In this document: piece after piece, positions 1,785 to 56,396 of the stretch
Numbering within the stretch: position 1 is the stretch's first letter
Layout of the letters: each line of letters starts with the position of its first letter
Assembly: GCA_046563655.1 (NCBI GenBank)
Contig: CM102285.1
Span: 13,144,001 to 13,208,000, forward strand
Origin: Yuukianura sp. NJ FZ-2021
Lineage: Eukaryota
Direction of reading: 5' to 3'
Length of the DNA stretch: 64,000 nucleotides
Made by a program: the position numbers and the translations under genes
The notes under the pieces: generated by a model
The model's input: the letters and a program-made list of their open reading frames with translations, nothing else
Databases searched by the model: none
What the model was told of the DNA's origin: nothing

Positions 1785-4361
1785 TTAGTCCTCCCTCTTT
1801 GAAACGGGTTTGAATGCAATTTTCCGGGATTTGAGTCCGGACCAAATGTGTCGTTTCCAGTACCATGTCACGGCAATAAGCAATGGAAAGATGAGCAGGG
1901 CCTAAAAAAAGAAGAAAAAAGTATACAAACAAAGGTAGGGTCACAAGGAATGATGAATTTATGAAACGACTTTCAGGGGGACTCAAAACCAGCTCTTTTG
2001 GGGGGAAAAAGAATTGAAAGCATTATTTCAATCCATTATTTTCGGGGAAAGATGTGAAAGATAAGATGGACGAGATGCTCTGACACATTTATGACATAGG
2101 GAAGACATCGGAGACGTCTTCTTGCTGCGTTATGACTCCCAGAAGTCCAAGTATCTCCTAAGGAACGAATCAACTGAACATAAATTTTGAAAAAGGAAAG
2201 TGAAAGGAAACTGGGTAACATTTTGTCAAAAGCAATTCGTAAGTTCAGTGTTTCCTCTTGAGTCAAGGACGAAACCCAAAGGAAACACTATTTTCTCAAA
2301 ATGTTGTTCGAGACAGAGTAACTTAACATAACTTCAAAAAATAAATAAAAACAACTTTTACCGGTTCGTTACGCAACTTTTCGTCTCATCTTTGTACAGA
2401 ATCTCTCGTATGATCACGAAGTAATTCAGGATGATAAGGAAGGGAAACCCACCCCATTTAATCAACTTGAAATCTCATCCGTACTTTAAGGAAAAAAAAA
2501 CTTGGAAGTTGCATTACGTTATGGTTTTCGAAAGAGGAAGTAAAAGAATTATATGGGATGGGTTGTTGTTGTTGTCATTTTATGCAATCTAAATAACGCA
2601 CGACCCAGTGAATTACATATCTGTAAAAATCTAAGCATTTTGGGTTATAAAGAACTGAAAGTCGTGTCATAAATCAAATAGTTAAAGTCGACCTTTCCCA
2701 TTTCCCTCTTAAAAGCCTTTACTAAACAACTTATTATTGGCTTTTCTGCTGAATCTTTAGCGGTTATTACCTTAACTGTCCATCTCTTCCGGGTATCATG
2801 ATGAAATTCAGAAGACCATCGCAAAAAGGTAGAGACGTCTTTGGCCATTTGGCTGGCAGTGGCAACAGTTCCATCGGCGTATTCAACAACCTTGTGTAGA
2901 AAAGAACGTCAAGTTACTTATAAGTAGTTTTAATCAAAGTATATTCTATTTGAATCTGTAAGATTTTGTACCTCGTTGAATAGAGATTGAGCCATTGATA
3001 TCGCTCCTCCAGGAAAGTACGGATTATAGTATTGCCCATCCCGAATGATAACTCCAGCCGGAGCATCAACGTAGCCCGTAAGCAAATGAAAGATGTAGTC
3101 TTCTCCGCCATGACGAGCATTGACAATTAGAGACAAATCTGGTGGAAAGGCTCCGTTGTTGGCAAAACGAGCTGCCTCTTCATTGGCATAAGGACTTGGA
3201 AAGGTATCCGATAGTTTCCCTGGACGTTGAAACATGTTTCCTTCCTCATCCGGTCCATCAGTGACCTATAATTTACTTCGACTTTTTAGCAACTTTACAA
3301 GAGTATAAGGAAATGAAATCTGTTGTATGACGTGAACGTTGCTTACCATAATTTCTTCTGCTTCGGCCTTGGCTTCGGCTTCCGTATGTGTTTCTCCAAC
3401 CAAATGACGGTAGCACATAAATCGCATTGAATGACATGCAGCACAAACTTGTTTATAGACTTGGTAACCGCGTCGCATCGATGCATGATCCAAAGAATCG
3501 AAAATTCCACCATGGCTCCAAGGTAAATGCGGAGGGTGCGCTTGTAAATCGTTAGCAGAAACAGAGTTCTCGAGGCCTACCAAAATTACTACCCCGGTCG
3601 TTCCAGCGAGTCCAATTGAGCTCCAAAACTAAATAAACAGGAAATTCTTTGATTACATTGAAAGTACTTTATAGTATAACATATATAAGGTTAACTTACG
3701 AGCTTCTTAGAAGTACTGCTCTCACTCCAGCTAAAAGTCGACAGTTGTTTCTGTAAAACAAAAAATATGCAATTTTCGGCAGGAGTAAGGCAGAGGTGGC
3801 GTGTGTTAATCTCCCATATCCCCTCCGGTATCCCATCCAATTATTGTTGTTGCATTGTTGCAAGTTAGGTTAGGTTATGTTGTGCCCCAGCGTATCCAAA
3901 TCGGGCAACATTGGAACCACAACAATGGGAGGGGATACCGGATGGGATATGGACAATTAACACACGCCACCTCTGCCTTACTCCACCCCAATTTTCAACA
4001 TTCCTTGCAGACAAGGTCCGTATACTAGTGGTGATCCAAATACTAATTGTATTCCATAACTGATTAATGGCATAGTCGGCTGCTTATGTTCTCTTTTCTC
4101 ACAGCCGCAGCGCACCGTTACTTAACATATGATCTACCGCGTCTTCGCATCTTTATCGTACCAGGTTGCCTAACTGATCGCTTATTGCTAAAATACAAAC
4201 TGCATCAATACTTCACCCAACATCAGTATCATCTGTTTCATTGCATTCCCCTAAAATTTACACCAACTAAAATTAATCAAAAATCGAACCTGAGCACGGC
4301 CCAATCCATTCCGGGATGCTTGGATAGCCTTGGTCGAAAGCCTGCTCAAAATCCCAACCAT
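1785..4361 (-). CDS. CYC1: Cytochrome c1, heme protein, mitochondrial; exons 4361-4290, 3750-3700, 3628-3347, 3265-2972, 2890-2771, 1901-1785
   Basis: Heme motif [43 protein letters not shown] and C-terminal anchor [27 protein letters not shown]. All introns are GT-AG and phase 0. N-terminal presequence-like [17 protein letters not shown]. Confidence 0.97.
3778..3988. mobile_element. MITE in CYC1 intron 1, 8-bp TSD
   Basis: TIR GGAGTAAGGCAGAGGTGGCGTGTGTTAAT is perfectly inverted at 3956-3984 and extends imperfectly inward. Flanking direct repeat CAATTTTC (3770-3777, 3989-3996). Central GTTAGGTTAGGTT. Confidence 0.9.
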
Positions 4362-5689
4362 CGTTTTAGTATCCTGAATCCAGATGATTGCCCTTAATTA
4401 ACTGAACACCTCTTTGACCTCTAACGAAGAGAAAACTAATTGGTTGGCAGGATTGATCAAATTTATTTTGGATCGGGAGAACCCTACCCGGATGGATTTC
4501 GGATCTGGATTGAATTGCACTTGCTTTTGCAAAAACTCCAATCGTTCTTATTCAGAAGTTATGCGAATTCCGAGAATTTCGGAATTTGCTATGCGAAATA
4601 TCAGAAATTAAATTGGCCATTGCAAAATTTTGAAATTACTAAGAAACAGTAGGAATTAAAAATGGCAATTCGTAGTTAAGGGACCATTTGGCAATGGCAA
4701 TTCTAAAATTTAATCTCATTCAAAATTTAGACCAATTTTAATTTTCCCGCTTTTTCTTCTTTTTTTGACTTTGTCTCATCATCAATAAACTCTTCAGATA
4801 CATGTTTTGTACAATAGTAATTTCAAACTGATAGTTTTTAAACTGATTTAATTCGGAATTCTGAATATTCTCGTATTTTTGGAGTGGCGTAAAAATTCAT
4901 AATTAAAATTGTGCGATGACAATTTTTAATCATCGACAAACGATCATCTCATCCCCATTCAAGTGTTTCATTGTCAGCCAACGTCTCCAATAAATTTTCT
5001 GCCAAGAAAAAACTATAATAATGCAATGAAGGGTCCCTGCAAATCTTACAAAGTATTTTTTTCTATTTTTCAAAAAAAAAATTTCTGAAAAGATTTATTT
5101 CTAGAAACTAAACAATACGACGAGGGGATTTGTGCGTGCATCGAATTTAAAAAAAAAAAAAGAATTTGGAAGTAAAACACACAGCTTCCAAATCCAAATT
5201 AAGTTTTTAAATTAAAAATTAAGAATTTTATTCAGTCTCCAAAATTTTTGTGCACATGCAAGTTTTCATTTCTGCTAAATTCTTAATTTGCCAGAATTTG
5301 ATTTAAATGAAACTAACCAATCTAAGGTTAATAATTTTGAACATAAAACTATTCTGTTTGCTTTAGTTACAATGTTGGAAAGAGGTCACTAAAGGATTAA
5401 CTTTTTTTTTTAGAAATGTGTTTCTTTTGTTAAATTTTAGTAAAATCAAAAATTCCACAAGTTTAGGTTATTGCCTCCATACTTTTCACTGGGTATTTTA
5501 GGTTTCTAAGAATAAAGAAGGTCAGTAGGGTTAGGGATTTGTGCTTTGCGTTTTCTTTGAAGAGAATTTTGGTCTCAGAAGAGCTTCGGGCGCCAAAAAC
5601 CTCTTATTTTATTTTTACAAAAGTGTTGGTTTTGTGCAATTTCGGTGCCTTTCCCTCCCATTCGTCTTTGTCCTTTACGAAGGGAAGGA

Positions 5690-7760
5690 CGCGTCGTCAA
5701 TTTTTGTCCATCCTGGACGCCATTGAGAGACGAGCATGAGGGCATGCCGTCTCATGGGGCTCGTCCACGCTGTAAAGCGTTTGCATCAAGCGACGATTCT
5801 TCTGGACGGCGTCGTGTCATCGCTGTAAATCCTGATTCTGCATTTTCTCCAAAGGTAACAAAATTATTTTACGATTTTCGAAATTTTGTCAAGGTTTAGT
5901 TAAATTTCAAAACTAGAATTGCTGCGCTACTAGAAAGGAACTTAAATAGTAGTTGGAAGTGGCTTTGATTTAACGTAACTTTTGTAAACTGATTTCCGTT
6001 CGAAGCTGGACGACGACGTGCCAGAATCTAGTGTATGGACGAGTTTTTTTTCCCGAACGGTGTCGGTGTGACACCGTTCCGAAAAAAAACACATGAGCAG
6101 ATTCTCTTTTGTAAATTCATAAAATCAAATTGCTTACAAAAACTGTGGTAACCCCGAAATTGTAATGACAGGATTCTAACTTTTTATTTCTTTGTTTCAG
6201 GATTGAATGAATGGCGGTTGAAATCGTCTGGAGAAGCCACCACCATCATCTCGTCCAGAATTTAATCAACCGAATGCTTGTAAATTGACTTTCATCGGTT
6301 TTCACCATGGACTTCGTCTTCGCAACTCTATTACCTTCAGTCTTTTATCGAAGTCACTTTCGTCGTCTACGTTTAGGAATTACATAAAATATGCTTTCTG
6401 TACGGAAACCATTTCGAATCTTCTCTATTCTTTAATCAAATCAATTCCTTATTCTAAGGTAGTCATCTAAGCAAGCTGACGCTGAATTGTACTACTGTCT
6501 AACACTATTTCCAGTTTTCCTAAATTTTCTTTTATGCCGTGTTTGTTTTTGTCAGGTCTGTCACGAGAGCAATCTCTAGTAATGTAAAGGTTACAACTCT
6601 GATGTAACGCTTTTATTTTGTTCAGGTCAGTTATGAGAGGCAACTCTTTTCCGATTAATGTAAGTTACATTCTTTATGTAACGGATTATTTTGTTCAGGT
6701 CAGTTATGAGAGACAACTCTTTTTCTATTAATGTAAGTTACATTCTTTATGTAACGGATTATTTTGTTCAGGTCAGTTATGAGAGACAACTCTTTTTCTA
6801 TTAATGTAAGTTACATTCTTTATGTAACGTATTATTTTGTTCAGGTCAGTTATGAGAGACAACTCTTTTCCTATTAATGTAAGTTACATTCTTTATGTAA
6901 CGTATTATTTTGTTCAGGTCAGTTATGAGAGACAACTCTTTTTCTATTAATGTAAGTTACATTCTTTATGTAACGTATTATTTTGTTCAGGTCAGTTATG
7001 AGAGACAACTCTTTTCCTATTAATGTAAGTTACATTCTTTATGTAACGTATTATTTTGTTCAGGTCAGTTATGAGAGACAACTCTTTTTCTATTAATGTA
7101 AGTTACATTCTTTATGTAACGTATTATTTTGTTCAGGTCAGTTATGAGAGACAACTCTTTTTCTATTAATGTAAGTTACATTCTTTATGTAACGTATTAT
7201 TTTGTTCAGGTCAGTTATGAGAGAAATCTCTGTTAGTGTGAGGTTACATCAATTAATGTAGCACCTTATTTTGTTCAGGTCAGTTATGAGAAAAACTCTC
7301 TACATAACGTGTTTGTTTTGTTCAGGTCAGTTATAAGAGACATTTCTTTCTCTTTTAATGCAAGTTGCATCATTTTATGTAACGTCGTATTTTGTTCAGG
7401 TCAGTTTTGAGAGAAATCTTAATTATATCAATGTAACGTCGTATTTTGGTCAGGTCCGTTTCGAGTATACTCTCGACGTAAACACAATTTAGGTGGTATT
7501 TTGTTCAGGTCAGTTTTGAGAGACATCTCTTATTAATTATTCTATAGCTGTAATGTAAGTTTCGAAATTGGTCAGGTCAGTTTTGAGGAATGCCTCTTAA
7601 ATAGGGTGTTAATTTTAGTCAGGTCAGTGTGAAGAGAATTCTTAAACGAATCAACGACGAATCGTCTTCGTTTTGATCAGGTCAGTGTACCGGGAAAATT
7701 CCCGTAACGGAGTTAATTTTAAGGCTAAAAGTTAAGTCTGCATACGAATAAACACAAGAA
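5690..7760 (+). ncRNA. Candidate spliced long non-coding transcript (or solo-LTR-like element) carrying the structured array; boundaries approximate
   Basis: No convincing ORF. Clean intron AAG|GTAACA (5855)...TTCTAAC...TTTGTTTCAG (6200), GC-rich hairpins in the 5' part, AATAAA at 7747 and ~7936. Confidence 0.4.
6556..7723 (+). repeat. Tandem array of 18 units: 8 near-identical 73-nt units (6626-7209) flanked by diverged 43-74 nt units
   Basis: TCAG|GTC junctions after 6555, 6625, 6698, 6771, 6844, 6917, 6990, 7063, 7136, 7209, 7278, 7325, 7399, 7453, 7508, 7575, 7622 and 7680. Confidence 0.97.
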
Positions 7761-8631
7761 AAGAGATTTAGATGTTTCAATCTAAATCAACTTAAGATAT
7801 CATAGTTATCAAATGTTTTTAATTGTTTAGTTTTAATGTTAATTTTGCAATTAGTCTATTCGAAATCTTCCTGAAGATCCTTGATTAAAATTGGTTCTAT
7901 GAGGCAAATCTAAAATTTCCATAATTCTTTCTCTCAATAAAATTAAATGATTCATTTCAAAAATGGTTAAAAGTATTGTATAACGATTATGGCAATTAGT
8001 GAAAGTTCCCAATGAGGCTATCAAATCGTTTTGCGAACTTAATGTACCTACATGCTACAGAACTCCAGCTACCTTAAGTTCAACTACACAGTGCCACTGG
8101 CGAATCGCCACACTTTCATTAACATTCGAAAGATTAAAATCCGAACCTACATGCATTTTGTTCTGCAAATAATTTGTCATTTTTGCAATGAAATCGACTC
8201 TCCAGGAAAATGAAGTGGAGAAAGCACGAATTTAGTTTGGAGATTGAACGCTTGCATTTAAAAAAAAGTCTGTTAGAAAACAAAAATCAGAGTGCTTTGA
8301 GGTCAAAGGTCAGGATAAGTCCGACTTCTTTGTTCACTGGTTTTTTATTAGCAAAATTAAAATGTAGAATCTCGATAAAATTATATCATAAATAATAAAT
8401 AATTAAATTTAGTCGTAAATAACGTTCCGTAATTTTCATCCATGATCCAATACACGATGAGCAGCGACCTCCAAATTTAATTTTCATAATGACATCTTTT
8501 GGTAGCCATGTCCATGTTCAAGTTCATATATGCACCATACTGACACTAAAACAAAAGATAATTAATCATCATGAATTACTTCAACAATAATTTTTCATAT
8601 TCAAAAAAGTAAAAAGTGTATTCACAGTTGA

Positions 8632-11600
8632 TTACTTTTCTCGTTTCGTAGAAATGGAAGGGTTTCCCACTGGTTCGGGAGACTGCGGACCTGGAACAAT
8701 TTAACGAATTTTGGTTTAGAATTTCGTTTTGTTAAAACAAATCTTTTTGTAAATTAAAAACTTACTGGAATCAGATGAAGATGAAGGTGACAACTGGCTG
8801 TGACTGCTAGCAGAAGAATCGGCCAGTCGTGACTTCAGTTCTCGTTCGCGATACATCCGAGCTGTTTGCGAATACAGTAGTTCCTCTTGAACCAGTTTCC
8901 GAGCTTCTCGTTCCCTCTTGAGGTCAATGTTAATTCGGAAATTGCTGTCTTCCAATAGCGCCAACTTTTGTTCCAAATCTTTCTTGTCGTAAATCGGACT
9001 CTTCAGTGGAGTTCCACCGAGCGCCATTGATAATTCCATGTTATGTTTCAGTACACTGGACAACTTCAGCTGGAGTTCATCTCGCTCTTCCAGTAACTGA
9101 AAACAGTCATAAAGAAAGCAATAATAAATATCAATTTTCCTTCTTTCTTTTAACTTTCAATCTTCTTTTAAATAAAAATTCAAAACTTACCCTCGTAATT
9201 TCTACTGTAAGTTGGACACAACGTTTGTCTCGTTCATCAAGAGCGTAAATGAGACGCAGAAGCTCTTCCTGGATTTTCATGACCTTTGGATGAACGCCAG
9301 GATCTTTAGTAGCCGAATTGACCAGCATTGTGATTTCTTCCTGATATCGCTGATTCTCCATTTCCAGTCGCTTGATCCAATTTTTAAGAACAAAAGACTC
9401 TTCGTACGCTTTCATCTCCGAATTTTCAATTTCCGTTATCTTCGACTGCAGAAGTTCCATTTTTCGCTCCTTTTTGGCAATTTCGTCCTTCAGAGCTTCA
9501 ATCTCTTCTTTCAGCTTGGAAGCTTGTTGTTGTCCTTCTTGCGCTGGCAAAGTTTCAATTTTTACCAGCTCAGCATGCCTTAAAGCTTCTTCAACTTGTA
9601 TGGCCTTGGCTTCCAGCTCTGCTGTCAGTTTCTTAAATGCATCGACTTCAGATTTTAACCACGTCGCTTCCAGTTCAAGTTGTTCCTTAGCCTTAACTTC
9701 CCGTTCGAGCTCATGAATTTTACTTTGGAGTTCATCTGTAACCGTTTCAAGTTTAGATGAAAGTAGAGAGTTCTTCTCCAGCAGTTGATTCGTTTGATCC
9801 GACGCTGCTTTCAAAGAATTTTCGACGTTTAGCAGCTCTTCACATTTCGACGCAAGTTGTTGCTGGAGCATCAAGCATTCCGATTCGCGCAGTATTTCTT
9901 CTTCCTTGAGCTTATTTTGATACTCCTCCCGAGCCGTGTCCTTCGTATTCTTCCAAAGGTTCATCAGTCGCACTTTCTCACTGCGTAGGTGAACAGCTTC
10001 TTGCTTATAAGTTTCTGTTTGAATCTTCATATTGGTCAATTGTGTCCCCAGGTCACTGACCTCTTGATTCCTGAGATGATTGACCCGCGAGAGTCCTTCA
10101 ACTGCAGTGGAAATACTCTCTTCCTGAACGCTAAGCTTATTCAGAAGTTCTTGGATTTGATCTTCACTGGTGTTCAGCTGGACCCGATAGGATTCCTTCT
10201 CTTGCGTCAATTTTTCAATTTCGGTCGAACTAATTGATAAGTAATTCTGAATTGATTCAATTTGTTCTTTAGCCAAGGCGTTAAGCTCTTCTTGTTCCTG
10301 CCTGGTCACCTCACGCTCATGAGCCATAGTATCCAGTTCACTTTCAAGACGACTTATGCATTCGCTCTTGCTGTTGATGACTCCAGTGAGGTCAAGCTCC
10401 ATCTTTTCTTTGGTGTCAACATAAGACTGATAAGCAGCCATGAGCTGCTGAATTTCAAGGTTCTTGGCATGTACAGTTTCATTAATTTCGGTGGTTTTCG
10501 TTTCGACGCATGTCTGGATTTCCTGGAGCTCCGCTCGAAGATCTTGCAATTCTTCGTCTTTCTGATTTAAAAGGATTTCTAGCGATGATAATTTGGAAGT
10601 AGCCTGTTCTAAAGCGTTTTGGCTTTGAATTTCTTGCAATGATAGCCGTGTATTTAAATCTTCAAGGGCGTTACTCTCCTGTCGGAATGCAATTTCATCA
10701 GCTTCGCGTCTCCTGTGAAGGGTATCCAATTCAGCTTCCTTCCGCTGCAGCTCCGTTTCTTGCAATGAAATTTGTTTACGCAATTCTTCTACAGTTTCTG
10801 CATGCTTCTCCATTTCTGTGTGTTTGAAGCTGAGGTTGGACGATAAATATTCCGTATGCTTTTGATGTTCCTGAAGATCAGTTTCATAAACAAGAAGTGT
10901 GTTTCGGAGAGACTTTATTTCTTCCTCCATTTCTTGCAATTTTATTTCCTGAGGCAGTCTGGCACGAAGATGTTGCAGTTCTTGTTCCTTGTCGCGTAAA
11001 TCGTATGCATGAGAGGTGATTTCAATACGAAAATCTTCTAGCGTTTTATCCTTTTCGACCAATTCGTTTTCAAGCATGGCGATTTTGGAGACTAGATCGG
11101 AATTGCGGTCCTCGGCGGCGTCCAGGCGCTGACTCTGCTTCTCGAAGTTTTGCTTCCTCAATTCCTCAATGCAGCGATTCTGAAGGGTGACAAATTGACT
11201 GTGAGAGGCGTCGGGTGATGATGAAGGGGGACAATCTGTTTCGTCAGTTTCGGTATACTTGTCTAATTTGGGAATATAAATTGGATCGGTTTCGGAGTCT
11301 ACCATGTCAGCGATTTTTAATACATTTCTGGACAAATCAGCGACCGATGACGATTTTTCTTCATTCTTCGTTTCGCTAAGTTTTAGTTCCTCTGGCGCTG
11401 TTGTTGCAGTCGTCTTATAACGCTCTTGGTCTTCCAGTATTAGCTGTACGTCCTCGAGTTCTTTAACTTCCTGCGCAAGCATCTTCTTATAATTCTCTTC
11501 ATGACCTTTCAGCATTAGCTGTACGTCCTCCAGTTCTTTAACTTTCTGCGCAAGCATTTCTTCATAATCATTATGTTTTGACTGAAGTTCCTTCATTGCA

Positions 11601-12912
11601 GCTTTTGATGCTGTGGCGTCTTTGACTGCTGCTTTGGCGGCTATTTGGTATTTTTTCGCTTCACGTTCAACTTTTTCGAGTTGTTTGGCTTTTAGGTTCA
11701 CTTGTTCCTCAAATTCATCGCATCTTCTTTGAATCTCCATCAAGTCTTCATCTTTTGACAAAAGTTCGTCCTTGAAACGCTCTAATTCTTCTTTGAGTTG
11801 TTGATTATCAGTAGATTCTACTTCGCGAAGTTTGTACTCTTCAAATTCGGCTTGGAGTTTTTCATAATCCCGCGTAACCATTTGATATCCACCGATGATC
11901 TCGCTTTGCTGATCTTGCAGTTCTTTCAATTCAGCCTGTGCCTCAGCCAAAGCTCGAGCCATTCCTTCTCCGTCTTGTTCCAAACTATGAAATTGAGTCG
12001 GAAGACATTTTAGTAGATTTAGTTTAGTCTCGAGCAGCGATTCACCAGCATCAGTTCCGCTGCCACTATCATCTGGAGGTGCTGCAGGAAGATAAGTTTT
12101 AAAATGCGCAAGGAGGTCATCCAACACAAGGTTGACTTCTTCCATTTGTTCGTCTTTGGCGACAATGTTTACTTTCATGGCCTTCAAATCCGAGGATAGG
12201 GATGAGATTGATAAAGATTCTACGTTCTTCTCCAGAAGAATTGTTTCTAACTGATGCTTGACCTCTTTGCACTCTTCCTCTTTTTCGGACAGCGATTTCC
12301 GAGCGATAGCCAACTGCTCATTCAGGGAATTTACTTGCTCCTCAAGCTCAAAATCTTTCCCGCTTTGGGATGATGCTTTACTACTTGAGCTTTCCATTTC
12401 ACATGGCTTGATTTTTACAAACTTTTCGTCCTCGACGGCAGATTCTTCTGAACCGGTTGATAGGCTCATGAGTGAGATAGGCACTGCCGGGTGACCCTGA
12501 CTAGAACGAACGCTTGAAGTTTCGGCTGAATTGTCTTCATCTCCATGTCCAGTCGACTTGCCGTGGGAGGCTATAATTCATAAAAGTTGCATTACGTGTT
12601 TCGGTTGAAATGGAGCGAGAGAATGGAGTGAGAAGCTTTGTAACAGCCAAACAATGCATACCTTTTGAACGAGCTAATAGACTCATCAGACGTAACTTTT
12701 CAGCTTGCAAGGCTATATTCTCTTCACGAAGTTCTTCGAGGTCAAGGTCAACGTTTGGTGTGCTCTGTTAGAATACCATAAAACATAAGTTTGTAGTGTA
12801 CTAACTCTTTGACTCATCGCTTCATTCATCAGCGTTTCCTTACTTCGTGCAGAGGCTGAGGTTCATCAGGTGATAATTCAATGTCTTCCATAGCACCAAC
12901 CAGATCGTCCAT
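8632..12912 (-). CDS. Long coiled-coil golgin-like protein, lava lamp-like; exons 12912-12844, 12764-12662, 12570-9191, 9096-8766, 8690-8632
   Basis: 1117-aa E/K/Q/L-rich heptad ORF extended by frame-consistent GT-AG exons. An in-frame stop lies upstream of ATG 12912. The C-terminal segment LIYALDERDKRCVQLTVEITRLLEERDELQLKLS resembles the insect lava lamp C-terminal motif as I recall it. Likely 5' UTR exons extend to ~13500. Confidence 0.75.
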
Positions 12913-14610: not shown

Positions 14611-15197
14611 TAAGTCTCAGGACTCAGGAATACCTTCTTCTTGGTGAAAATATTTTCATGAGATAATTTTGCTACTTCAACCATAATTTGAATTGAAATT
14701 GGTGACAATTTTCGCGCCAAAACACTGACGATCTTTGTCTCATTCGGGAATTCCATTGGCGAGGCGCGAAATTGTATTTGATTTTCATATTTTGAAATCT
14801 CACAAAAATTAAAACAAAACAAACAAATAAAAATAAAATCATAAAGTTCTCTTCTTTTCAACTTCAACCGTTGAATTGAAGTTTCAACAAATATCAAAAT
14901 ACATAAATCGACGGTTGATTTTTAGACAATGGGTGTTTGACATTGTTGCATCCGAGTGTTTGTTTTGTTCAGGCGATTAGTCTGAAAGTTGAATGTCATT
15001 GACTGTACGGGACTCGTTGAGTTTTTCAGGTTGAAGTTCATAGGATAGACGTTTTTTTTTAATCGTGAGTCGTCGCCATCATACCAGCAGAAGAAGAAGG
15101 AACGTCAACGTTATTCAGGAATGCTGTTTAGTGACAGGAAGAGGAAGACGACACAAACTGTCAGCTGAACTCCGCTACTGTGACTGCAGTAATCACG

Positions 15198-56237: not shown

Positions 56238-56396
56238 TTTCTTTTGGAGAACATTTGATTAGATTTTTAGAACAAGATTCTTTTTCCAAAAAAATTGAAT
56301 TCAATTCTGGTTTTCTTTTGGAGAACATTTGATTAGATTTTTAGAACAAGATTCTTTTTCCAAAAAAATTGAATTCAATTCTGGTTTTCTTGGAGA
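56238..56396. repeat. Recent tandem duplication, 74-bp period, ~2.1 copies
   Basis: TTTCTTTTGGAGAACATTTGATTAG...AATTCTGGT repeated at 56238 and 56312. Confidence 0.92.

Follow-up and report, generated by a model that had tools for sequence, protein, structure and literature searches.

The locus raises the question of what has kept a tandem array of short units recognisable, and whether the thing kept is an RNA structure, a linear motif, or neither. The array occupies 1.15 kb of the window, by which we mean the whole 64-kb stretch of DNA that was analysed. It consists of 18 tandem units, each opening at the G of a GTC that directly follows a T-rich tract and CAG (Table 1; in motifs a slash marks this junction). 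The explanation that we favour, tentatively and with slightly less than even confidence, is that the array represents a multivalent set of 18 crippled splice-site ("mini-intron") modules, which account for the bulk of the last exon in an apparently noncoding RNA.

Table 1. Coordinates of the array, its candidate hairpins and the host transcript in the window
Feature	Position	Strand	Description
Unit starts, U1-U9	6556, 6626, 6699, 6772, 6845, 6918, 6991, 7064, 7137	+	
Unit starts, U10-U18	7210, 7279, 7326, 7400, 7454, 7509, 7576, 7623, 7681	+	
U1, diverged left edge	6556..6625	+	70 nt; core GTCTGT; stem 1 GAGA-gcaa-TCTC; stem 2 of 6 bp (6590-6595/6603-6608)
Homogenised block U2-U9	6626..7209	+	8 units of 73 nt; period 73, 9.6 copies, 94% matches
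Diverged tail U10-U18	7210..7725	+	unit lengths 69, 47, 74, 54, 55, 67, 47, 58, ~45
Linear core, one example	6685..6712	+	aTTTTGtTCAG/GTCAGTt.tgAGAG; recurs at 18/18 junctions
Stem 1, core copies U3-U9	e.g. 6709-6712/6717-6720	+	AGAG-acaa-CTCT; 5 pairs if G-U allowed
Stem 1, U12	7335-7340/7349-7354	+	AAGAGA-catttctt-TCTCTT, 6 bp
Stem 1, U14	7461-7465/7472-7476	+	TCGAG-tatact-CTCGA, 5 bp
Stem 1, U16	7585-7588/7593-7596	+	GAGG-aatg-CCTC, 4 bp; missing from predicted MFE fold
Stem 1, U17	7632-7635/7640-7643	+	AAGA-gaat-TCTT, 4 bp; missing from predicted MFE fold
Stem 1, U18	7691-7695/7700-7704	+	CGGGA-aaat-TCCCG, 5 bp; the sole stem with arms unrelated in sequence to the rest
Stem 2, core copies U2-U9	e.g. 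6737..6755	+	GTTACAT-tcttt-ATGTAAC, 7 bp; TAAC within the 3' arm
Stem 2, U10	7243-7249/7256-7262	+	GTTACAT / ATGTAGC, one U-G
Stem 2, U12	7364-7370/7377-7383	+	GTTGCAT / ATGTAAC, one G-U
Upstream exon, 3' end	5816..5854	+	37 letters of one X4 contig, continuing directly at ~6201
Intron, GT..AG	5855..6200	+	joined out in cDNA-like X4 contigs (joint 5852->6199; GT..AG ends after a shift of +2)
Last exon seen, holding the whole array	6201..7905	+	overlapping X4 contigs; contig extent, not the true 3' end

The spacing of the units is regular (47-74 nt) and none is skipped. Units U3-U9 differ from each other at two positions only (offsets 26 and 59), in an alternating pattern typical of unequal crossing-over. 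This pattern is what one would expect of a near-neutral minisatellite residing in a noncoding transcript. Such a repeat would descend from one ancestor, its GA-run/CT-run palindromes would pair in any register, and its apparent conservation would stem from recent duplication and gene conversion, together with a young haplotype block. We consider this rival explanation somewhat unlikely, and the evidence on both sides is given below as it arises.

The core formed by the junction and its flanks resembles a polypyrimidine tract and a 3' splice site joined directly to a 5' splice site whose position +3 is C. The pattern YAGGTCNGT has 20 matches in the 64-kb window compared to 1.55 expected, and none of 100 shuffled sequences reaches this number. 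Eighteen of the 20 matches fall within 6553-7686; the other two (24481 on the + strand and 30985 on the - strand) resemble the usual acceptor sites of coding exons. AGGTCA occurs in 16 of the 18 units, its sixth letter being A, T or C among units. In many units, TAAC is found 15-19 nt upstream of the AG. Among the 12 distinct units, columns outside the anchor, namely the T tract and offsets 7-14, are kept as well.

Every tail unit (U10-U18) retains TCAG/GTCNGT, whereas the remainder is mostly unalignable from U13 onward. In U13-U18 the core columns have identical letters in 5-6 of six units, compared to 3-4 of six in most other columns, and the sequence beyond is near random. The eight anchoring columns are identical by construction; the adjacent T tract and offsets 7-12 are not. 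A neutral minisatellite would decay evenly across the unit, but these old copies, with lengths varying from 47 to 67 nt, keep the core although the rest has diverged beyond alignment. What is most constrained is the linear motif rather than any structure.

Within the 64-kb window, a search with the covariance model yielded no further copy of the module; the best remaining match, at 14959, reached 15.6 bits over 16 nt. The 19-letter core, used in a metagenome scan, produced 12 loci with one match each and no array, which is consistent with chance. Rfam 15 had no matches at the gathering score over the window; with E relaxed to 10, the region 5600-8000 gave none inside the array and two weak matches of snoRNA models outside it.

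The array appears to be transcribed on the + strand. The contigs of run X4 behave like cDNA because of the joint at 5855-6200 (GT..AG) and a second joint with CT..AC ends at 8546-8635, which corresponds to an intron of the neighbouring - strand gene; the run is labelled "DNA?", its cDNA nature is deduced from these two joints and one loose end, and no run is recorded as RNA. The X4 contigs cover 6199-6378, 6349-6542, 6514-6639 and 7197-7905 and are colinear with the genome. Units U1 and U10-U18 are read through and retained, and none of the assembled joints falls within the array, although contigs reveal neither the RNA level nor rare spliced forms. Tandem copies of a splice-signal repeat are thus situated inside an exon and stay in the processed RNA, provided that X4 indeed derives from RNA. 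The longest open reading frame found in a scan of the spliced transcript is 44 aa. The array-bearing RNA would be spliced, transcribed from the + strand, and apparently noncoding. Since the array is transcribed on this strand and retained in cDNA-like contigs, a role at the RNA level is possible. PAS-like hexamers are present at 7747, 7884, 7936 and 7942. Run X4 has no cover over 5933-6154 and 7931-8374.

The resemblance to splice sites suggests that the units might be real tandem mini-introns or recursive splice sites (GU...UAAC...T tract...CAG, 47-74 nt) removed singly or in blocks, which would make the region an alternatively or recursively spliced one and not a retained exon. Indeed, the units begin with GT and end with a T-rich tract and CAG, many of them with TAAC at the above distance from the AG; the real introns in the window are of about 65-95 nt, plus one of 346 nt; and the juxtaposition of acceptor and donor is like that of recursive sites in Drosophila. 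However, U1 and U10-U18 are read through in the same run in which 5855-6200 is joined out. All 18 units have C at +3, whereas all six real donors read in the window have a purine there (two of these donors are backed by X4 joints and four were deduced from continuity of open reading frames); the donor half thus departs from the consensus expected of a recursive site. No real intron read in the window is as short as the shortest units (47 nt). Recursive splice sites are known from long introns rather than as tandem series spaced 47-74 nt apart, whereas the array is located in an exon and its removal is not observed in the contigs, with the same reservation about rare spliced forms. We therefore regard splicing of the units as improbable, and return to modules that are retained.

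The hairpins were the basis of a preliminary description of this DNA, which claimed that they are conserved by compensatory change. All six stem-1 hairpins listed there are present, letter for letter and at the places given. In 17 of the 18 units, a Watson-Crick stem begins at offset 8-12 and spans at least 4 bp; in U13 it has 3 bp, and more if G-U pairs are allowed. At random places of the window with the matching offset, stems of at least 4 bp occur in 15.5% of cases and those of at least 5 bp in 5.2%. Because the background is only 15.5%, the recurrence in nine of the ten diverged units is far above independent chance. Simulation of uniform neutral descent gives 1.65 units on average, and none of 200,000 draws reaches nine. 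Still, most of the excess is due to shared descent of GAGAG...CTCT, and the arms are GA and CT runs able to pair in several registers.

The distribution of changes within the units points in the other direction. In the five units that align without indels, the arms of stem 1 have changed at 5 of 50 positions, compared to 9 of 20 in the loop (Fisher p=0.002), although the units are related and the events are not independent. By the same count, changes affect 5 of 45 positions at offsets 1-9 and 13 of 25 downstream of the hairpin. Thus the loop varies like the downstream sequence, yet the 3' arm beyond the loop is kept like the core, which is not what a minisatellite would be expected to show. 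Structural selection on stem 1 itself is a possibility that we take seriously, but on balance doubt.

Stem 2 was confirmed in U2-U9, U10 and U12, and the variants in U10 and U12 each create one G-U pair on the + strand, as had been described. However, changes in this stem are three single-sided ones (including a polymorphism at 6607 in U1) and no two-sided ones. Stem 2 is absent from U11 and U13-U16, being present only where the units can still be aligned. That it is under structural selection seems quite unlikely at best.

Compensatory evolution of the hairpins is weakly supported. Covariation no greater than in shuffles had been named beforehand as the outcome speaking against it, and this is what the unbiased MAFFT alignment of 14 units gives (0.119 compared to 0.111, with 125 of 500 shuffles reaching this value). 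In the same alignment 86.1% of cells are paired, compared to 84.3 +/- 1.1 in shuffles (60 of 500 reach), two pairs have two-sided changes, compared to 1.1 in shuffles (130 of 500 reach), and the RNAalifold consensus contains no pairs. In the model-fitted alignment, which leans to structure, 88.7% of cells pair, compared to 80.3% in shuffles (none of 500 reach), and four pairs have two-sided changes, compared to 1.5 (6 of 500 reach). Four held-out units scored 1.9 to 10.6 bits higher with the structured model than with a sequence-only model.

Swapping of stem partners among the 12 distinct units yields P=0.026 for the summed stem length and P=0.005 for the count of stems of at least 4 bp, but this signal is driven by one or two edge units. 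Without U18 the values are 0.29 and 0.05, without both U18 and U14 they are 0.64 and 0.13, and with G-U pairs allowed, 0.43 and 0.07. Most 5' halves pair equally well with foreign 3' halves, and a fraction of 0.61 of the off-diagonal pairings reaches at least 4 bp. The folding energies of the units are like those of shuffles on both strands, with no strand asymmetry (mean MFE z: + strand, -0.76; - strand, -0.85); on the + strand, z falls to -2 or lower in two of the 13 units (U12, -2.79, and U18, -2.82). Common pairing with foreign partners, covariation at the level of shuffles, the empty consensus and ordinary folding energies all agree with a minisatellite. Thus the stems exist, their arms are kept over the loop, and the structure-fitted alignment exceeds shuffles, but the claim of compensatory change is not borne out by the unbiased alignment. 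More generally, caution is due with short stems in tandem repeats when their arms are runs of purines and pyrimidines: they seem compensatory to the eye, but this impression results mostly from shared descent and freedom of register.

Haplotypes were also compared. The tail differs by 0.85%, compared to 4-10% in the flanks. In the X4 contig 7197-7905 there are six differences and no gaps per 709 nt. The flank 6349-6542 has 8-10 differences and 9-17 gaps per 194 nt, the flank 8413-8545 has eight differences per 133 nt, and the flank 7940-8346 (run X1) has 30 differences and 20 gaps per 407 nt. A tail 5-10 times less divergent than its flanks is not predicted for a neutral repeat. However, the low diversity could be an effect of local genealogy among few haplotypes, and the block of low diversity reaches 7939, past the array. 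The core is not inviolable either: an X2 contig carries 7510 T>G, changing GT to GG in U15, and both X4 and X5 carry 7329 A>G. One more variant of X4, 7339 G>A, breaks a G-C pair of stem 1 in U12. Variants striking both the core and a stem again suit the minisatellite.

The preliminary description had also preferred selection on RNA structure, as in a multivalent protein-binding scaffold, to a neutral minisatellite. The case against a freely decaying minisatellite gains from the core being kept where the rest is unalignable and from the low diversity of the tail; + strand transcription with retention allows a role at the RNA level, and the arms of stem 1 are kept although its loop varies. The structural part loses from the results on the unbiased alignment, the lack of a consensus fold, and the constraint being mainly on the linear motif.

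The same linear motif could be read at the level of DNA, as a homotypic cluster of transcription factor sites (AGGTCA half-sites of nuclear receptors, GAGAG sites, palindromes) that would serve as an enhancer, silencer or boundary element, with incidental transcription. The invariant letters include AGGTC, AGGTCA itself is frequent, most cores are flanked by GAGAG or its complement, and palindromes suit either strand, in line with the similar folding z-scores on both. However, it is the final letter of the half-site that varies (A, T or C among units, G for the 7329 variant), and the 5' extension seems unlike the known extended half-sites of monomeric receptors. A factor reading the palindrome would preserve its sequence, whereas the arms differ among U14, U16, U17 and U18. 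Finally, cells that are not Watson-Crick pairs favour G-U on the + strand, 11 to 2, although the alignment was fitted on that strand and the units share ancestry. We consider regulation at the DNA level to be hardly probable.

Under our preferred reading of retained splice-site modules, each module consists of a T-rich tract and CAG, resembling a 3' splice site, abutting GUCNGU, resembling a 5' splice site and always having the disfavoured C at +3. The next element is a purine run, pairing with a pyrimidine run into a hairpin of 4-6 bp, and the less diverged modules have a second hairpin covering UAAC. The modules would be kept in the RNA rather than spliced out, and jointly might serve as a multivalent platform for U2AF-like, U1 snRNP-like and SF1-like factors or for one dedicated RNA-binding protein. 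The putative outcome is that the RNA is retained in the nucleus, that the factors are sequestered locally, or both. Recognition would proceed mainly via the invariant linear core, with a putative role of stem 1 in setting the motif context. The core was also considered as a platform presenting single-stranded RNA, but this idea was abandoned, as its predicted accessibility is average (P(unpaired) of 0.4-0.7 compared to the array mean of 0.44).

In a stronger version of this model, C at +3 would be obligatory and the 4-6 bp hairpins would be structurally selected. The RNA would capture early components of the spliceosome (U2AF-, U1- or SF1-like) while remaining unspliced, titrating them or anchoring itself in the nucleus, and a second expressed locus with the module would exist. 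We think that this version is unlikely.

Several known systems are similar to the array in some respects, the nearest being the repeats of Gomafu and the uaf-1 exon. Ratchet points, or zero-nucleotide recursive sites, also have a polypyrimidine tract and CAG directly abutting GU. However, they are single, occur in very long insect introns, carry a consensus donor (purine at +3) and do not outlast splicing, whereas the array is dense, tandem, retained in cDNA-like contigs and has C at +3. The A-repeat of Xist likewise combines a conserved sequence with a short hairpin in tandem short modules, a layout presumed to serve multivalent recruitment of proteins. The likeness is in the modular design; there is no sequence relation, and the structural support for the array is much weaker.

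The alternative exon of uaf-1 in C. elegans reportedly has about ten copies of UUUUCAG/R, which are said to keep the mature RNA nuclear. In both cases acceptor-like motifs are repeated within an exon and are not used as splice sites. On the other hand, the uaf-1 exon belongs to a protein-coding gene of a splicing factor, whereas the host transcript of the array has no long open reading frame, and here each acceptor-like motif is fused to a donor-like one. A Caenorhabditis-type reading of the array, with U2AF binding UUUUCAG/R, was discarded, as TTTTCAGR is not enriched in the window (14 matches compared to 19.8 expected). The U2AF of that nematode does read UUUUCAG/R (PMC2762039).

The tandem UACUAAC repeats of Gomafu/MIAT bind SF1 (PMC3116199). 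Again, this is a noncoding RNA with exonic tandem splice signals that are retained unused and provide many sites for a splicing factor. However, the repeats of Gomafu/MIAT are branch points, whereas the array repeats the acceptor/donor-like junction T tract-CAG/GUCNGU. The array also differs in having 18 copies at regular distances of 47-74 nt, a homogenised centre and a hairpin per copy.

5' splice-site motifs in terminal exons and lncRNAs lead to nuclear or chromatin retention via U1 snRNP (PMC4380460; bioRxiv 10.1101/310433). In the former, export is blocked by a 5' splice-site motif situated in the terminal exon, and the motif is sensitive to the structure around it. The common feature is a donor-like motif in the last exon with no productive splicing after it. 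However, those are single consensus copies in mammalian RNAs, whereas the array has 18 copies whose C at +3 is a mismatch to the usual consensus. The search motif printed in PMC4380460 is [C/A]AGGU[C/A]AG, which, taken literally, would include CAGGUCAG.

If functional, the array would be a compact natural RNA presenting many copies of a complete but disabled pair of splice sites. With it, the few noncoding exons known to compete with introns for splicing factors, Gomafu and the uaf-1 exon among them, would gain a further member. The array would, moreover, be a clean system for studying how a donor-like site stays unused by way of its C at +3 and the hairpin next to it.

Some other readings were considered and set aside. 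The units are too short for spliced-leader RNA genes, the piRNA upstream motif GTTTCA is absent, and the stems are too short for miRNA hairpins. Introner insertions were dismissed, as the units are retained in cDNA-like contigs. Boxes of snoRNAs, Helitron ends and miRNA sponges were put aside as well. In the neighbourhood, Pfam had no match for an ORF of 1148 aa or for the multi-exon gene at 23-25 kb; among the seven neighbouring ORFs searched, the only identification was cytochrome c1 (2933-3628, - strand).

A transcribed, retained and sequence-constrained array of modules resembling splice sites is the more notable feature of this region, rather than compensatory change in its hairpins. The array consists of 18 head-to-tail units (U1-U18), each opened by GTCNGT directly behind a T-rich tract and CAG. 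In order from U1 to U18, the units measure 70, 73 (eight times), 69, 47, 74, 54, 55, 67, 47, 58 and approximately 45 nt; Tandem Repeats Finder assigns to the central part a 73-nt period with 9.6 copies and 94% matches. Since U3-U9 differ from each other at two positions only (offsets 26 and 59, counted from the first G of the unit), the centre of the array has been homogenised recently, in the manner of a minisatellite. On the right-hand side, U10-U18 are old, diverged units, and from U13 onward the sequence outside the conserved columns is essentially unalignable. The motif YAGGTCNGT has 20 matches in the 64-kb window, 18 of them at array junctions (1.55 expected; none of 100 shuffles reaches 20). 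Our alignment is anchored on this motif, which makes eight columns identical by construction; non-anchor columns are conserved as well, namely the adjoining T tract and offsets 7-14 (T.TGAGAG). A near-neutral minisatellite, one rival explanation, has the homogenised centre on its side and the conserved columns of the old units against it. Most core units (the homogenised block U2-U9) have an ATG at offset 8-10 (6633-7236) that opens a frame of 30-32 aa reaching the next unit; these frames rotate between units, as 73 is not divisible by 3, and are probably meaningless.

Among four sequencing runs compared with the window, X4 is cDNA-like, and we infer that it represents RNA. One X4 contig crosses a GT..AG interval upstream of the array, overlapping X4 contigs extend from this junction to 6639, and a 709-nt X4 contig is colinear with the genome over the right-hand units. 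The exon that holds the array therefore follows a + strand intron, and the cDNA-like contigs retain U1 and U10-U18, although contigs show neither RNA ends nor the absence of rare spliced forms. The spliced transcript contains no ORF longer than 44 aa. Hexamers resembling polyadenylation signals (PAS) occur 3' of the array at 7747, 7884, 7936 and 7942. Run X5, from another study and with a second organism label, has contigs over both array flanks and two pieces of core units, thus the array is not restricted to one data set. Contigs of X1, X2 and X4 share with the window a 36-nt segment comprising the end of one unit and the start of the next, with unrelated sequence on either side; thus at least one further locus, also in the cDNA-like run, carries the module.

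Features of the array and its surroundings (window coordinates; X1, X2 and X4 are sequencing runs)
Position	Feature	Details
2933-3628 (- strand)	Two ORF pieces matching Pfam Cytochrom_C1	E 5e-42 and 1e-20
~3780-3990	Large inverted repeat in the interval from the cytochrome c1 gene to the transcript with the array	Arms ~60 nt, short spacer
5854 -> 6201	X4 contig junction	GT..AG interval; intron 5855-6200
5955-6162	Insertion/deletion polymorphism within the intron; looks like a small foldback insertion	X1 and X2 contigs have 19 other letters for 208 bases; long inverted repeat at ~6044-6089, T8/A8 ends
6349-6542	X4 contigs	8-10 differences in 194 nt, 9-17 gaps
6514-6639	X4 contig	5 differences in 126 nt
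6553-7725	Array, U1-U18	
6602-7299	Central array, Tandem Repeats Finder	
7197-7905	X4 contig	6 differences in 709 nt, 0 gaps
7266-7969	X1 contig	1 difference
7292-7810	X2 contig	1 difference
7389-7424	Segment shared with otherwise unrelated contigs	X1, X2, X4
7646-7673	Predicted longer hairpin, U17 second half	AAACGA...TCGTTT, inner ACGA/TCGT
7708-7740	Predicted longer hairpin, U18 second half	U/A-rich 8-bp stem
7940-8346	X1 contig	30 differences in 407 nt, 20 gaps
8413-8545	X4 contig	8 differences in 133 nt
8545 -> 8636	X4 contig junction, neighbouring - strand gene	CT..AC interval
8690	X4 loose end	Exon edge
9134-12577 (- strand)	Open frame, 1148 aa	No Pfam match
56238-56391	Perfect tandem duplication, sequence unrelated to the array	74-nt unit, 2.1 copies, 100% identity

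The array motif TCAG|GTCNGT resembles an acceptor-like tract fused with a donor-like hexamer. In the donor-like half, position +3 is C in all 18 units and +4 is variable, whereas a purine occupies +3 in all six real donors readable in the window (GTAACA and GTAATC, supported by X4 junctions; GTAAAA, GTACCA, GTGAGT and GTAAGC, deduced from ORF continuity). Thus the units are intron-shaped, yet unlike working introns; the shape agrees with the rival explanation that they are mini-introns that are truly spliced, and the C at +3 disagrees with it. Caenorhabditis-like acceptors were ruled out, TTTTCAGR having 14 matches in the window versus 19.8 expected.

Most likely, the array is a platform of pseudo-splice sites on a noncoding RNA. 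The retained modules would jointly bind readers of splice signals or one dedicated protein, which could keep the RNA in the nucleus or titrate these factors locally. There are precedents for such a mechanism. The C. elegans uaf-1 exon contains the acceptor consensus in repeated copies. Gomafu is described as carrying tandem branch-point repeats bound by SF1 (PMC3116199). A 5' splice-site motif in a terminal exon is reported to block export, probably via U1 snRNP, and to be sensitive to nearby secondary structure (PMC4380460), and U1 motifs are presented as driving chromatin retention of noncoding RNAs (bioRxiv 10.1101/310433).

The preliminary description listed six forms of a short hairpin soon after GTCAGT (stem 1, AGAG-acaa-CTCT in the core) and two variants of a second stem, all of which are present in the sequence exactly as listed. 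It does not mention the longer hairpins predicted in the second halves of the last two units, U17 and U18. In 17 of the 18 units, a Watson-Crick stem of 4 bp or more, enclosing a loop of 3-8 nt, starts at offset 8-12; the exception, U13, has 3 bp, or 5-6 bp with G-U pairs. At random places of the window, the same offset yields stems of at least 4, 5 and 6 bp in 15.5%, 5.2% and 1.8% of cases. Nine of ten diverged units keep at least 4 bp, versus 1.65 expected (none of 200,000 draws reaches 9) under uniform random substitution from a core copy at the observed divergence of each unit, a null that cannot tell conserved structure from conserved sequence, as most units retain GAGAG...CTCT. The hairpin occurs in the minimum free energy or centroid fold of 8 of 13 folded units.

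Strand-specific evidence bears on another rival, a cluster of sites acting at the DNA level. The mean folding z-score of the units against shuffles is -0.76 for the + strand and -0.85 for the - strand; of the + strand values, just those of U12 and U18 lie beyond -2. Non-Watson-Crick cells on the + strand are G-U in 11 cases versus A-C in 2, many of these cells being one inherited pair in an alignment fitted on that strand.

The hairpins had been claimed to be maintained by compensatory change, and tests aimed at compensation itself gave a mixed outcome. In the unbiased MAFFT alignment, which comprises 14 units, 86.1% of cells pair versus 84.3 +/- 1.1 in shuffles (60 of 500 do as well), covariation scores 0.119 versus 0.111 (125 of 500), and RNAalifold predicts no pairs; these checks, of the kind that the preliminary description proposed, leave compensatory evolution unsupported. 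In a register-free swap, the 5' half of each of 12 distinct units was combined with all the 3' halves. Most halves can replace one another, since the purine and pyrimidine runs pair in registers 31, 33 and 35. Permutation gave P=0.026 for summed stem length and 0.005 for the count of units with at least 4 bp, becoming 0.29 and 0.05 without U18, 0.64 and 0.13 without U18 and U14, and 0.43 and 0.07 with G-U allowed. The arms of U18 alone pair exclusively with each other (5 bp with their own partner, 0 bp with the 11 other 3' halves).

A covariance model trained on nine typical units and used to align all 18 gave 88.7% pairing versus 80.3% in shuffles (0 of 500 reach it), four pairs with two-sided changes versus 1.5 (6 of 500), and a covariation score of 0.436 versus 0.269 (0 of 500); however, this alignment is fitted to structure, and related sequences can exceed all shuffles without any structure. 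Held-out units score higher with the structured than with the sequence-only model (U14, 23.8 versus 19.9 bits; U18, 22.6 versus 12.0; U16, 20.3 versus 18.4; U17, 20.2 versus 14.7), a gain not due to structure alone, as the training units also differ by ~12-15 bits. The positive tests lean either on a single unit at the array edge or on an alignment fitted to structure.

Five units can be aligned with the core free of indels, and in these, changes affect 5 of 50 arm positions versus 9 of 20 loop positions (p=0.002), 5 of 45 at offsets 1-9, and 13 of 25 in the five columns 3' of the hairpin. The 3' arm is therefore a conserved island past a variable loop, a pattern that conservation simply fading away from the core would not produce; a hairpin fits it, and two separate linear motifs fit it too. 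Stem 1 thus shows some signs of selection, the arms being steadier than the loop and the stem keeping its offset in units with altered arms. Formal covariation in the unbiased alignment does not support compensatory change.

The second stem, GTTACAT-tcttt-ATGTAAC, has 6 bp in U1, 7 bp in U2-U9, and 7 bp including one G-U in each of U10 and U12; U11 and U13-U16 lack it, and their longest stems, 0-4 bp, are at background level. Its variants are single-sided transitions and none is two-sided, so the compensation proposed for it is not observed. A variant, 6607 A>G, creates a U-G pair in this stem of U1.

The diverged tail of the array and ~230 nt beyond form a low-diversity block, which is suggestive of constraint, falling short of proof with the few haplotypes available; assembly of contigs may mask isolated variants in these divergence figures. 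The variant 7329 A>G falls on the variable position (N) in GTCNGT, in the X2 contig 7510 T>G abolishes the GT of U15, 7339 G>A disrupts a G-C pair of the U12 stem, and the variants at 6570, 6600, 6601 and 7343 are in loops. Directly downstream, in sharp contrast to the adjoining block (7197-7939), two deeply diverged haplotypes occur within one sample (depths 57 and 150), and under the second organism label the form present is the divergent one.
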